From IMG/VR virus record IMGVR_UViG_3300032238_001058, positions 18,625 through 82,624 of that record: a stretch of DNA of 64,000 nt. One strand, given 5' to 3'. Of the stretch, positions 45,597 through 51,700 are shown one piece after another. A program made the position numbers and the translations under genes. Within the stretch, counting starts at the first letter, position 1. Each line of letters begins with the position of its first letter. The DNA is from a virus. The notes beneath the pieces were generated by a model that had not been told where the DNA came from, did not search any database, and saw only the letters and a program-made list of their open reading frames with translations.

Positions 45597-45767
45597 ATGG
45601 AAAAGAAAAAGCCTGTTCCTCCCAACAAAGCTGTGCCGCCTGCTAAAGGTAAAGCTGCTCCCCCTGTTAAAGGCAAAGGTGGTGCATCTGACAAACAAGC
45701 TGAAGCACGTGACAAATTCAAAGAAATGATTGCGAAAAAGAAAGAGGCTGCTGCCAAAAAGAAATAA
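45597..45767 (+). CDS. 56-aa Lys/Pro/Ala-rich protein (not in ORF track)
   Basis: MEKKKPVPPNKAVPPAKGK...; TATACT box upstream. Confidence 0.6.
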   Translation: MEKKKPVPPNKAVPPAKGKAAPPVKGKGGASDKQAEARDKFKEMIAKKKEAAAKKK

Positions 45768-45840
45768 GTATTACAGTATACTTTTATTGCTCAATACCCA
45801 CGCCTCGTCCCGTGGGCATTGGCGGTAAGTAATCTGTCCT

Positions 45841-45869
45841 AATCCTGGTCTGAGCAACCAGGATTTTTT
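45841..45869 (+). terminator. Intrinsic terminator
   Basis: AATCCTGGT...ACCAGGATT followed by T run. Confidence 0.8.
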
Positions 45870-45884
45870 GTGTATAATAAAATT

Positions 45885-46064
45885 GATAGAGGTCAGGTCC
45901 CTGCTTGCACACCTGATCCATCATCGAAGTCCTGGGTTTCCAGGCCGGAGGTTTAATTACCTTTGCCAGATTGATTCCCTGGTGCGCCCTCGACCCATTT
46001 GGCAAGCGCGACGAATTAACAACACCTTCTATGCCTCTCAACGATGCACAAACCTGGGGGTCAC
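45885..46064 (+). ncRNA. Candidate structured non-coding RNA with pseudoknot
   Basis: TATAAT at 45873-45878; five helices including a 9-bp pseudoknot. Confidence 0.55.
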
Positions 46065-46065
46065 T

Positions 46066-46136
46066 CAACCGGTAGTCCAGTGGCAGGACACTCCAACAAG
46101 GAAGTTAGATAGTTGGTTCGATTCCAGCACGGTTGA
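46066..46136 (+). tRNA. tRNA-like element with non-canonical anticodon arm
   Basis: Acceptor CAACCG/CGGTTG, D-arm GTCC/GGAC, T-arm GTTGG-TTCGATT-CCAGC; no 7-nt anticodon loop. Confidence 0.6.
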
Positions 46137-46138
46137 TT

Positions 46139-46214
46139 CACCTGGTCCGAGACAATTGGATAGTACGGTTACTGCCGTTGCAGAACGATGTAGGTTCGAC
46201 TCCTACCCAGGTGC
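46139..46214 (+). tRNA. tRNA-like element with non-canonical D and anticodon arms
   Basis: Perfect acceptor CACCTGG/CCAGGTG and T-arm GTAGG-TTCGACT-CCTAC. Confidence 0.6.
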
Positions 46215-46269
46215 TTAAACAAATACAAACTACAACGCAATCGTAGTTATACTGTTTTAAGCAATATGT

Positions 46270-46761
46270 TTGTTAATGAAGCTGCGGAAATGCTCTTCTT
46301 GTGGAGTTGAAAAGAATTTGCATGAGCATTTTTATAAACAAGCAAAAGCTAGGGAGCATCGCGCAGAAGGTTATTTAACGCAATGCAAGTGCTGCGTACT
46401 AGAGAAAAATCGCAGAACACATGCTAAACCTAGAAACAAACAAAAGATTTGGGAAAACAAACTCCAATATCGTTACGGTATAACCAAACAAGACTACGAT
46501 TATTTATTTACAAAACAAAAAGGTTGTTGTGCTATTTGCGGCACAGACAATCCTTCAGTCAAAAGCAAAAAACATAAATACTTTTCAGTTGATCATTGCC
46601 ATCAAACAGGTAAAATCAGAGGTCTTTTGTGTGCTACTTGCAATAGCGCAATTGGTTTACTTGGCGATTGCCCTGTGACTATTTCAAAAGCTTCTTTGTA
46701 TTTAAGCAGCACGCAAGATGCTCTTGACAAACCAAGCAGCTTTAAAAGCCTGTCCAACTAA
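46270..46761 (+). CDS. Endonuclease VII-family homing endonuclease
   Basis: YGIT..DY..L...Q.G.CAICG...VDHCHQTGKIRGLLCATCN..IG. Confidence 0.9.
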   Translation: MLMKLRKCSSCGVEKNLHEHFYKQAKAREHRAEGYLTQCKCCVLEKNRRTHAKPRNKQKIWENKLQYRYGITKQDYDYLFTKQKGCCAICGTDNPSVKSKKHKYFSVDHCHQTGKIRGLLCATCNSAIGLLGDCPVTISKASLYLSSTQDALDKPSSFKSLSN

Positions 46762-47288: not shown

Positions 47289-48623
47289 TCATCGAGAGAT
47301 TTCTTCCCAGTCTAATGAAGCATGTACAGTAGAAGTGCTTGCACTTGCTGCAATTACTAAGCTAAGCTCATAAGCAGTACTGGTTAAACCATTACGTTCA
47401 AGCTGGAACTTAAACAAAGCTTCTTTTAATACATCAACCGAAAGGTTTGATTGGTTACTGCCAGAAAAATATCCTTGCGCCAAAACACGACCACCACTAA
47501 AACTGGTCCCAGTCAAGTTGTATTCAATAGAGGAATCAGTACCAGCACTGGTCCAAGTACCACCTGTAGTTGTTCCAGTTGCTACTACACGCCAACAATA
47601 ATTAGCTGTACCAGCAGCAGCCATCATTGACAAAGCTGTTAAAAGAACAATTGCATCTAATGCTGTTGACTTAAGACGTAATGAAATAACCGGATAAAAA
47701 GTTCCTGCAGTCGTTAAGCTAGCCGGAGCAGTAATAGTAGTTCCAATGGCTTGTTGTAGACCACGCAACTCATATCCACCTTCCGACAGTACGGTGGAAC
47801 AGATTTGTTTTAATGTGCTGCTACTTGCTGTTGTAGTTGTGTTTTTAATTTCATACCTTAAAGGCAAAGAAGCTGTAGTTATATAGGTAGCTGTAATTAA
47901 GTTGGCATGGTTAAATGAATGGCAATGAATAAACTTCCCATTAATTATGAATCCCAAACGAACAGTACCTAGACCAAGCCATTCAATATCCATCCACAAG
48001 ATTTGAGCCTTGGTCAAATCCAACGTTAAACCAGAGGGTCCAGTACCATTCAATGGATCAATATTCCAGTTTGATTGGCTAACACTTGTTTCTGTTACAG
48101 CTCCTGTAACCAAACTACGCTCTACAAAGACTGGCTCACTGGTCCCATTTTTTTCTAGGTACATACCATTGTTTGTACCATAGTAACCAACGCGTTGCCG
48201 CAATCCAGCTTTACCAGATTCCAACACAAACGTTGACATAACCAACAGTGATTTTCCAGGCTGGTAAGAAAATACCTTGGTTGTTTCTCGTACAACTTCT
48301 GAGCCTGATGCAGTAGTTACGTTCAGTGTGACCAATCCAGCATTTGCATCAAATGATGTAGTGCCACCAGTACCACTGGATGTTGTCCACAAACCATTGT
48401 CATGATACCGATGACTTGAATCAAATAATGTCAAAGGAGCTGCAACACGTAAACGTCCAAATGCGTCAGCGCCTGTGCCTCCACCTTGAATATTTACCGT
48501 TCCACTGGTGGTAGATGTTACTTCAATAGGTTGTCCACTAGCAGTAACAACAACAATTCCTGAACCATAGTCAGCATACCCAGAGGTACCATCACCATAG
48601 TCATTGATATAACGAATAATCAC
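47289..48623 (-). CDS. Virion structural (spike-like) protein; start re-called at GTG 48623
   Basis: DAFGRLRV..P.TLFD, YQPGKS, W.G.G.VR.GF; TAAACT box upstream. Confidence 0.7.
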   Translation of the reverse strand: MIIRYINDYGDGTSGYADYGSGIVVVTASGQPIEVTSTTSGTVNIQGGGTGADAFGRLRVAAPLTLFDSSHRYHDNGLWTTSSGTGGTTSFDANAGLVTLNVTTASGSEVVRETTKVFSYQPGKSLLVMSTFVLESGKAGLRQRVGYYGTNNGMYLEKNGTSEPVFVERSLVTGAVTETSVSQSNWNIDPLNGTGPSGLTLDLTKAQILWMDIEWLGLGTVRLGFIINGKFIHCHSFNHANLITATYITTASLPLRYEIKNTTTTASSSTLKQICSTVLSEGGYELRGLQQAIGTTITAPASLTTAGTFYPVISLRLKSTALDAIVLLTALSMMAAAGTANYCWRVVATGTTTGGTWTSAGTDSSIEYNLTGTSFSGGRVLAQGYFSGSNQSNLSVDVLKEALFKFQLERNGLTSTAYELSLVIAASASTSTVHASLDWEEISR

Positions 48624-48706
48624 TTTGGTACCAAAGATACTTTCTACTAGTTTAAACCAATATTTAAAACGTGATGTTAAAATTGGAATACGAGTGACCC
48701 AGTGAC

Positions 48707-51700
48707 ATGCCACGTCAATTTGCTAACAGTCAACTTTACGACGTAATTAAAACTCAAGGTGACACCTCAATCACCGGCAGTGAGGTTTTAACAGATCCTG
48801 TTGGCAAGTTGCGCGTTTCAACGCCACAAGCATTAATTGATACGGACTTTGAGTACAGTACTCAATCAACTAAGTGGGAAAGTTTAAACCTGTTAAATAA
48901 TAGGCCCAGTGCTTTTTATGAAGTAACTAGCCCATTAAGTGTTAGCGCAGTATCTGCATCTACCACTACCATTACTGTTACCACCAATATTGTTTTTACT
49001 GGTACTTACTCACAGGCAGGTACTACCACTGTTACTGTCACTGTTGCTGCTGGCCATAATTTACAAACAGGGCAAAGGATTTGGGTTGATTACACCAGTG
49101 GTACTGCTGTTGATGAAGCTGTTATCATTACTGCAACAACAGCAACTACGTTTACTTATATCAGTGCAGGCACTCTTACCACATCTGGCAACGTTAGTAT
49201 TTACTTATCTCCAGCTGTTGGTACACCTATTTTTGTACAGAGCACAACCCAAGCTGTTGCTAATGGTTGGTTTGTAGTTGCAACTTCTCCCGGCACTACT
49301 TTTACTTACGTTGTTCCCAGCACTGCAGGCAGTGGTTCAATTTTAGATTCTACTAAAACATATATTTACCTTGGTAATTTTTACACTGGTGCAGGCATTC
49401 CCCTCACTGGAACCACGGCATTTACTTTTAGCACCACTACAATTACCGTTACCACTACCAATGCTCATGGATTTACTGTCGGCGACGGTATTTTTGTAGT
49501 AGGTTTAACAGCAACTACTAATGCACCAAATGGAAGTTTCATTGTAAAAACTACTCCCAGCGTTAATACATTTACGTATACAGCAGCTGCTACACCCACT
49601 GGAACTATTGGAAACACTGCAGGCGCTGTTAATTTATTCTCACGTCCTTTTGGTAGTGTAATTCACCGTTCTTTTGATGGCGGCGTTGATTTTACTGCAG
49701 GGTATCCCTATACAGGTAATCAATTAATTCGTCAAACTCGCCGTTACTTTCGTTACCAATCTGGTAAAGGTATTCAATTTAGTACAGGAACCTGTTTAAA
49801 ACCAGCTTTCAATGTTAACAGTATTACTGCTGTTGGCTCAACTGTTACTGTTAATTTAAAAACACCGCACAACTTAAACGGTAACTATTTAGCACTTGGC
49901 GGCATTCCTGTTTCAGCTTCTGCAGGTGCAGCATTTACTTATGTTGATAGGGTAGTTACTTGTACTACAAACAACTCTCATGGATTTAATGTAGGAGACA
50001 AAATTTATATTACAGGGACAACTAGTTCAGGAACTAATCCTCCCAATGGAACATGGACAATCTCATCCATTGTTTCGGCTACGCAATTTACGTTTACTGT
50101 TACTAATGCACCAACAGGAACGATTACTTCTACTGTAACATCAAGCCTTTATCCCATTGGAACAGGTCCTTTTGTAACTATTTCAGGTTGCACTGAAGCT
50201 GCTTACAATGGAACCTTTTTGGTTTTAAGTGTTCCCAGTGATGTTTCTTTTACTTATACAGCTTTAGTTGCTCCTACTGTTTCACCTGCCGTTGGTTTTC
50301 CAATTACGGTAAGTCCTGAAAGCTGGTGGAATGCCAGAAACCGCGTTGGTTTGTTTGATGAACAGAATGGATTCTTCTTTGAATTTGATGGACAAACTTT
50401 ATATGCAGTTAAGCGTAGCTCAACAACTCAAATCTCTGGCTCAATTGCTATCAACGCAGGAACAACAACAGTCACTGGAACTAACACTACTTTTTCAAAA
50501 CAGCTAAGCCCTGGAGATGTCATTGTACTTCGTGGAATGACTTACAATGTTCTTTCAATTCTTAGCGATACTTCAATGGTAATTTACCCTGAATACAGGG
50601 GAACTGATAACATTGCTAATGCAGTTGTTAGCAAAAGAATTGAAGAACGTTATCCGCAAAGTCAATGGAATTTGGACCAATGCGATGGGCTAGGCCCAAG
50701 TGGGTTTAATTTAAACCTCACCAAAATGCAAATGGCGTACATTGATTACGCCTGGTATGGTGCAGGTGCAATTCGGTTTGGTTTTAAAGATCAAGATGGA
50801 GAAATTATTTATTGCCATCGCATTCCGAATAGCAACCGTAATACAGAAGCTTATATGCGTTCAGGTAATATGTGTGCTCGTTATGAGTGCAATACTATTC
50901 CTGCGTATACAACACTTGCTGCAACCCTTAGTAACACGGCAACGGATGCAATAACAGTAGCCAGCACTGAGGGATTTCCTAAAAGTGGAATATTAGTTGT
51001 TACCAAACCCGCCAACGTTACTTCCGGATCAGGCTCAACCGTCACTGGTTCTATTGAATACATTCAATATAACAACAAAAATGCAACTCAATTTCTTGGC
51101 TTACGTAGATCCATTACAAGTTTGACAGGACCTGGGGGATTAAACGCAGGGGGTGGTAATACTACATCACAAACAACCACTTATTCGGCAACTGCACCTG
51201 TGCATGTGCAAGCTTATCCTGGACAGTTTTCCAGTACTTTAGCGCACTGGGGATCGGCTGTAATTATGGATGGTGGTTACGACGATGACAAGTCATACAT
51301 TTTCCAAGCTGGTATGACTACAGCATTAAGCAACCTTGGTGCTGGAGCAAGTGCTGCATTAGCAAGTATTAGATTGGCTCCTAGTGTTGACTCTGGCATT
51401 ACAGGTAGTCTTGGAGCGCGTGATTTAATCAACCGTATGCAGTTGACTTTACGTCAAATGGATATTGTTGCAACAGGTGCAGCTGCTATCTTTAGGGTTG
51501 AGTTAGTTCTTAATGGTCGAATTGGTGGGTCTGGTGCTGGTACATTTGCCGCAGCAGGTGGTTCTAGCCTGGCACAAGTAGCACTACATACAGCTACTAC
51601 GCCTTTTACAACCGTTACAGGTGGTGAGACAATTCTTTCTTTCTTTGTTTACACCCCTAGTGTTGTACAACAAGATCTCAATTTAGTTCGTGATTTAGGA

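Follow-up and report, generated by a model that had tools for sequence, protein, structure and literature searches.

A structured-RNA gene in a freshwater cyanophage was found to carry the abiF RNA motif, the RNA antitoxin motif of the toxin AbiF, with no AbiF gene in the virus record and with two tRNA-like units directly downstream. That this RNA locus and its parts are real we hold to be highly probable. Its features are best explained by a protein-free RNA gene, predicted to be promoter-driven, in which two upstream modules (modA and modB), the abiF hairpin and the two tRNA-like units would share one transcript. Our favoured reading, held with moderate confidence, is that the RNA serves as an orphan AbiF-antitoxin decoy, released by RNase P plus RNase Z at the tRNA-like units.

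The RNA gene and its 5′ modules

The window, that is, the whole stretch of 64,000 nt that was analysed, corresponds to positions 18625-82624 in an IMG/VR virus record of 82.6 kb (completeness of 100% by CheckV), and the virus is an S-EIVl-like freshwater cyanophage. The cultured Arctic-lake cyanophage S-EIVl matched the RNA region of the window in sequence, with its homologue of the RNA stretch sitting in an unannotated gap, and the cyanomyoviruses S-CREM1, S-SZBM1 and S-SRM01 matched over the abiF hairpin. Approximately 360 related loci were gathered by pattern searches and protein-anchored searches. The open reading frames that overlap the RNA, at 45868-46218 (+) and 45784-46068 (-), had no Pfam match. 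At the 5′ side of the gene, the following elements were delineated:

45841..45871 (+): terminator-like hairpin (45841-45865; 9-bp stem), then a T-run; kept in relatives
45873..45878 (+): -10 box TATAAT, without a -35 consensus; transcript start presumed near 45885
45885..45926 (+): modA, the constant module at the 5′ end, a hairpin with its stem at 45891-45898/45911-45918
45927..46016 (+): modB, unnamed four-hairpin module of 90 nt; hairpins H1-H4 from the alignment
45931-35/45940-44 (+): modB H1, from the covarying alignment
45946-51/45960-65 (+): modB H2, from the covarying alignment
45966-69/45979-82 (+): modB H3, from the covarying alignment
45983-87/46006-10 (+): modB H4, with a nearly invariant loop, CCCUCGACCCAUUUGGCAAG

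The hairpin with its T-run closes the upstream gene block. The TATAAT named in the original prediction was found just 3′ of this hairpin, and its position is kept in relatives: in ~18 distinct ones the order was terminator, -10 box and then, 6 or 7 bases on, modA, with a constant distance from the -10-like hexamer to the conserved 5′ end GATAGAGG. A sigma-70 consensus scan called no promoter at 45873. In metatranscriptomes, short contigs of relatives (169-365 nt; three runs from two studies) extended over modB and over the junction of abiF with unit 1; as RNA ends are not visible in such contigs and DNA carry-over is possible, they are a weak hint of expression of the RNA gene in relatives. 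Among DNA runs, one contained most of the stretch and may come from the source sample. Directly 5′ of the RNA gene, a frame at 45597-45767 (+) encodes a basic protein of 56 aa, rich in lysine, proline and alanine, which has no Pfam family, is conserved in S-EIVl and may bind nucleic acids.

Covarying structures were directly observed in both 5′ modules. The helix proposed at 45891-45898/45911-45918 is the modA stem, where relatives showed compensation from U-A to C-G and where the loop takes an extra hairpin in relatives. Those proposed at 45931-45935/45940-45944 and 45947-45952/45959-45964 correspond to H1 and H2 of modB. Across 30 distinct sequences, 97.2% of cells in modB were paired and ten pairs were changed on both sides, giving a covariation score of 0.433 versus 0.217 for shuffled controls (0 of 500 reached the observed score) and 0.06-0.12 for slid controls.

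Two other proposed helices were abandoned. The 9-bp pseudoknot (45963-45971/45997-46005) was paired in 73.5% of cells, with no compensatory change and with 493 of 500 shuffles equalling it; it breaks wherever columns vary and shares bases with the covarying H2 and H3. The 12-bp long-range helix (45972-45983/46052-46063), of which the window forms 11 pairs and six relatives form 8-10, was rejected since it competes with H3 and abiF P1, both of which covary.

No Rfam family matched modB, yet the module was located 5′ of abiF motifs in many other aquatic viral and metagenome contigs (besides the window, L050, L090, L091, L098, L106, L120, L126 and L252, plus L333-L357 from metagenomes). A metagenome scan with the modB core returned 26 loci, of which 25 had phage-like GC content and one (L338) was a chance match inside a coding frame; an AbiF frame was found in none of the 26. 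Nor was modB found in any of 120 bacterial abiF loci or upstream of four Abi_2 genes on cyanobacterial plasmids.

A toxin-less abiF hairpin and its neighbours

In the original prediction, the tRNA-like units were viewed as possible processing signals that release an RNA of ~180 nt. This view fits the comparative data, but the identity of the upstream RNA, an AbiF antitoxin motif, had been missed. The motif was revealed by Rfam at 46.6 bits (cut-off 37; E 2e-5 for the whole window), in a match spanning model positions 1-37 of 37, and its parts are as follows:

46025..46061 (+): abiF RNA motif (RF03085)
46025-30/46055-60 (+): P1, 6 bp, with a non-standard U-U at the inner end
46031 (+): bulged A
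46032-34/46046-48 (+): P2, 3 bp
46035-45 (+): loop of 11 nt, CUCUCAACGAU
46049-54 (+): 3′ bulge CAAACC (family form CAAAYC)
46062..46065 (+): linker CACU between abiF and unit 1; RNase P cleavage presumed after 46065

Positions 7-28 of the motif (bulged A, P2, loop and CAAA) were identical to those of L209, an AbiF-linked bacterial copy, and the six differences between the two copies lie in P1 and at one bulge base.

Cas13 has been proposed to descend from AbiF, with the antitoxin RNA of AbiF as the forerunner of crRNA. AbiF is a HEPN RNase toxin, and the ncRNA encoded upstream acts as a type III antitoxin by blocking the HEPN active site (PMC13064643, PMC12737573). One such RNA, RCd22, neutralises AbiF in trans, and it is the structure of its stem, not the stem sequence, that matters (bioRxiv 10.1101/2025.04.15.648962). 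The phage copy resembles the RF03085 RNAs (AbiFr of the Prevotellaceae AbiF and RCd22 of C. difficile) in its 37-nt architecture and in its loop and bulge bases, but it has no toxin gene, it is located 3′ of two RNA modules, and a linker plus a tRNA-like unit replace the U-run.

Whereas the toxin gene lies next to the RNA in AbiF/AbiFr toxin-antitoxin systems, the neighbours here are unrelated: a Pfam scan assigned a methyltransferase, an endonuclease VII and a ferritin-like protein to the flanks and left several neighbours without a family. A search of the whole 82.6-kb record for Abi_2 (PF07751) gave no match, even with E values up to 1 allowed; the phage carries the defence RNA by itself, with no gene for the effector. 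If the RNA were the antitoxin of an unrecognised phage toxin, too divergent for Pfam Abi_2, the locus would be a complete toxin-antitoxin or exclusion system. Some phages and prophages are indeed known to carry AbiF systems (C. difficile phi027; L044 and L115), and the neighbours without a family would leave room for a toxin gene. We nevertheless rate this as very improbable, given the lack of any Abi_2 match and the nature of the flanking genes; moreover, the neighbours vary among the phages that share the motif, in which the usual partner is a tRNA. Also in this part of the window, the gene at 47289-48713 (-) encodes 474 aa and is a sulfate adenylyltransferase by S-EIVl annotation; it had no Pfam match here, and at least 588 relatives were counted among viral contigs.

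The recurrent junction of the motif with a tRNA was, like the motif and its orphan status, directly observed in phages. A tRNA was located 3-9 nt downstream, on the same strand, in 61 of the 119 viral contigs harbouring the 18-base abiF core (tRNA-Arg(UCU) being the commonest), whereas among the 123 copies from bacteria this was seen once. Roughly half of the viral set has no tRNA after the motif. Those abutting tRNAs that were matched by coordinates scored 57-70 bits against the Rfam tRNA model (14 of 20 loci checked). Similarly, when a minihelix was strictly defined as an acceptor plus a T arm, one was detected 3′ of the motif for 57 of 116 copies from viruses and 6 of 115 from bacteria, and 21 of 595 positions drawn at random from the same viral loci were followed by one. 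Its offset in viral copies was mostly 3-5 nt, and in the window the minihelix abuts the cargo RNA at 4 nt. Bacterial copies, by contrast, end in a U-run (for example, UCGUUUU), whereas viral copies carry a short pyrimidine linker (UCACU, UCUCU).

The two groups also differed in their link to the toxin. An AbiF gene was present in the locus for 58 of 123 bacterial copies, and 57 of 62 AbiF frames in bacteria either overlap the motif or begin no more than 600 nt 3′ of it, whereas 2 of the 119 viral contigs with the same core had an AbiF-like frame in the fetched locus. Among the whole records behind 50 viral copies that have no tRNA just downstream, Pfam Abi_2 was found in one, and in none of the six rated at least 90% complete; since most viral contigs are fragments, orphan status is firm for complete records only. 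In viral orphans, P1 and P2 are kept with several pair types (81-100% paired, except the innermost pair of P1 at 57%; 63 distinct 37-mers). Thus, the orphan copies are under selection as RNA.

An abiF sRNA has been annotated in S-CREM1, with no mechanism proposed (PMC9964418). There, 33 of 37 motif bases align with those of the window without mismatch, a tRNA-type gene begins 4 nt 3′ of the motif, and no AbiF gene is adjacent; however, the S-CREM1 copy precedes a genuine tRNA-Gly in a large tRNA array, whereas that of the window precedes a non-decoding mimic in a phage of another family. In the S-CREM1 array (L002 2219-3117), the end of the manA RNA coincides with the start of tRNA-Asn, and wcaG is separated by 48 nt from the tRNA-Met that follows it. 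Further cyanophage RNAs described as 'cis-regulatory' may be tRNA-linked small RNAs, too.

The same two structured RNAs can be cited for a different view, in which the hairpins, the abiF-like one included, act in cis on a tRNA-type operon (as leader, stability or processing elements) or regulate the endonuclease VII gene and have no link to AbiF. No terminator was called in the interval from unit 2 to the following gene at 46270, which would suit such a role. But nothing would make a generic leader preserve loop and bulge bases identical to those of AbiF-linked bacterial copies or a score over the Rfam cut-off, and modA, modB and abiF are retained in relatives in which the downstream gene differs; cis-action without AbiF is accordingly regarded as improbable. 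That next gene, at 46270-46761 (+) and 3′ of unit 2, belongs to the endonuclease VII family (PF02945; E 3.7e-21), and in L012 and L005/L008 an insert of 0.5-0.9 kb separates unit 1 from unit 2. Together, the gene and the inserts suggest mobile-endonuclease traffic around these RNA genes.

The closest relatives carry a variant in the abiF position. In S-EIVl, L004-L012 and L252, P1, the bulged A, P2 and a CAAAC bulge are kept, and the loop begins with YUAGCU and is enlarged by the insertion of a hairpin, 12 to ~60 nt in length; the Rfam abiF model did not detect these loop-insertion variants (S-EIVl, L004-L006, L012 and L252). Abi_2 genes on Synechococcus elongatus and Synechocystis plasmids are each preceded, at ~20 nt, by an abiF-like leader hairpin. 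These hairpins are unannotated and comprise P1, P2, YUAG, an inner hairpin and a 3′ bulge:

L332 1410-1470: cyanobacterial leader hairpin
L359 628-688: cyanobacterial leader hairpin
L360 630-690: cyanobacterial leader hairpin
L361 630-690: cyanobacterial leader hairpin

The canonical Rfam abiF was not found upstream of these four plasmid genes, the leaders being of the variant form. When three phage variants alone, with no bacterial sequences, were used to build a covariance model, it recovered the window abiF at 29 bits (E 4.7e-5) and two Synechocystis leaders at 17.7 bits (E 0.041), whereas the S. elongatus leader (10.6 bits; E 2.8) was not significant. The abiF family may be wider than RF03085. 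As far as plasmid loci go, there is modest, partial support for the use of such RNAs by cyanobacterial AbiF systems, the actual hosts of the phages being Cyanobium-type picocyanobacteria; no cyanobacterium was among the 120 matches listed in the bacterial genome-contig scan. Of the cultured phages, S-EIVl infects Synechococcus PCCC-A2c and S-CREM1 infects CB0101.

Two non-decoding tRNA-like units

The two cloverleaf-like units that had been proposed proved to be real, with covarying stems in each:

46066..46136 (+): tRNA-like unit 1, 4 nt 3′ of abiF; covarying cloverleaf
46066-71/46130-35 (+): unit 1 acceptor; discriminator A46136
46075-78/46086-89 (+): unit 1 D arm
46091-94/46100-04 (+): unit 1 short arm; pentaloop AACAA at 46095-99
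46112-16/46124-28 (+): unit 1 T arm
46139..46214 (+): tRNA-like unit 2; no ARAGORN call, sole Rfam match a weak one to tRNA-Sec (14.9 bits)
46139-45/46207-13 (+): unit 2 acceptor, 7 bp; discriminator C46214
46146-50/46156-60 (+): unit 2 hairpin; loop GACAA at 46151-55
46168-75/46180-86 (+): unit 2 second hairpin; loop CGUU, compensation from U-A to C-G
46190-94/46202-06 (+): unit 2 T arm

Of the parts that define a cloverleaf, unit 1 has the acceptor, D and T arms, and unit 2 has the acceptor and T arm only. The ARAGORN and Rfam searches that had been suggested as a check bore out unit 1, called as 'tRNA-???' at 46065-46137 and matching the Rfam tRNA model (RF00005) at 32 bits (cut-off 29), but left unit 2 uncalled. 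Among 15 sequences, unit 1 was 98.9% paired with 11 compensatory pairs (score of 0.350 versus 0.150); with five variants of the acceptor stem represented, covariation was seen in the acceptor, in the T stem and in the short arm, where it involved all four pairs. Unit 2 was 100% paired, with six compensatory pairs among 12 sequences. The loops at the anticodon position are indeed short, as had been noted, with 5 nt (AACAA) in unit 1 and 4 nt (CGUU) in unit 2 in place of the 7 nt of an anticodon loop, and neither unit is able to decode. The reported lack of an encoded CCA was seen in both units as well; it carries little weight, as the one genuine cyanophage tRNA inspected for this feature, tRNA-Gly of S-CREM1, likewise has none.

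The position of the units varies among relatives. Unit 2 lies directly 3′ of abiF in L099 and, in L012 and L005/L008, 0.5-0.9 kb downstream of unit 1. In L050, L091, L106 and L120, abiF is immediately followed by reduced minihelices (acceptor, T arm and one hairpin), on which ARAGORN is silent. The record also encodes one genuine phage tRNA (56.5 bits; G000:C1:2707-2779 (-)), outside the window and far from the RNA locus.

If the units were only cutting signals, the covarying short arm and its near-invariant loop would be left unexplained: GACAA caps this arm in 14 of 15 distinct homologues of unit 1, even as the short arm and the acceptor covary. The pentaloop GACAA is shared with the boxB of phage P22, where it adopts a GNRA-like fold with the C looped out and forms a protein-binding site (PMC12550061); in the phage units it caps an arm of a tRNA-like RNA and has no known N-like partner, so the likeness is a lead only. 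The main alternative to the decoy reading of the abiF hairpin builds on this loop. It holds that the units are the functional products, stable non-decoding tRNA mimics with a GNRA-like cap that, as sponges or decoys, would draw off tRNA-targeting defences (anticodon nucleases or activated HEPN RNases) or a tRNA-binding enzyme, with the upstream RNA as independent cargo. Decoys for host tRNA-targeting defences or synthetases had also been offered in the original prediction as a possible role for the mimics, one that the data neither favour nor contradict. Besides the conservation of GACAA, the presence of the same pentaloop on the unit 2 hairpin and the occurrence of unit 2 apart from unit 1 would fit. 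On the other hand, unit 1 of the window has lost the G (AACAA), no target is known, and at that position most other phages have ordinary tRNAs or much reduced minihelices, which fits a generic processing role. We therefore regard this alternative as unlikely, though worth serious consideration.

Folding energy was no better than that of shuffles (z = 0.09 for 45885-46064, -0.24 for 45885-46024 and 0.63 for the abiF hairpin alone) and is uninformative here, so the support for structure is comparative, not thermodynamic. This result, together with a unit 1 score barely above the Rfam tRNA cut-off, is what could be said for a functionless locus of decaying tRNA genes and chance hairpins. Such decay is contradicted by the covariation data, with compensatory changes in every module, and by the conservation of the locus in many contigs and in the cultured S-EIVl, as well as by the E of the abiF match. 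The earlier argument against simple decay therefore holds, with covarying stems and a conserved loop, and we consider it next to impossible that the locus is functionless.

Proposed release and action of the RNA

In the favoured reading, that of an orphan AbiF-antitoxin decoy, the mechanism we infer would comprise transcription of the RNA gene, cleavage at the units and association with AbiF, to the advantage of the phage. The units retain the acceptor, T-arm and elbow shape that RNase P and RNase Z recognise, and host tRNA-processing enzymes would cut 4 nt 3′ of the hairpin, yielding an RNA of ~181 nt with a defined 3′ end. The role of the cuts would thus be 3′-end formation, a task carried out by the terminator U-run in bacteria. 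By encoding the antitoxin RNA without the toxin, the phage could keep the host AbiF silenced at a time when infection would otherwise free it.

A broader scheme, which we consider rather improbable, would make the locus a multivalent RNA counter-defence cassette. Here modB, the abiF hairpin and the two GACAA-capped tRNA mimics would each neutralise or sequester a different host RNA-binding defence protein, the mimics would be both decoys for tRNA-targeting nucleases and cut signals that separate the modules, and phage tRNA arrays would be general launch pads for RNA anti-defence.

The proposed arrangement has counterparts in known systems. In MALAT1-mascRNA and in the TMERs of murid gammaherpesvirus 68 (tRNA-like/pre-miRNA units), a non-aminoacylated tRNA shape lies beside a cargo, the end of which is set by RNase P or RNase Z; the phage locus differs in belonging to a bacterial virus, with sigma-70-type transcription, two tandem units and a GACAA cap in place of the anticodon loop. 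Pseudo-ToxI (phage phiTE against ToxIN) and Racrs (RNA anti-CRISPRs; PMC10651486) are likewise solitary phage copies of the RNA partner of a defence protein; in contrast to a repeat expansion, the window RNA is single-copy, and its proposed target would be AbiF and its proposed release by tRNA-processing enzymes. The literature searched yielded no proposal that abiF copies of phages act as decoys against AbiF.

If the decoy reading is true, these RNAs would represent a natural, widespread, toxin-less phage copy that acts as RNA-only counter-defence against AbiF, in parallel to pseudo-ToxI and the RNA anti-CRISPRs, and AbiF would matter in lake and estuarine cyanobacteria. The motif-tRNA junction would then point to a design rule, by which the decoy RNA of the phage is trimmed by RNase P and RNase Z, whereas bacteria use a terminator. 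Such a rule would provide a concrete reason for the presence of small structured RNAs inside phage tRNA clusters.
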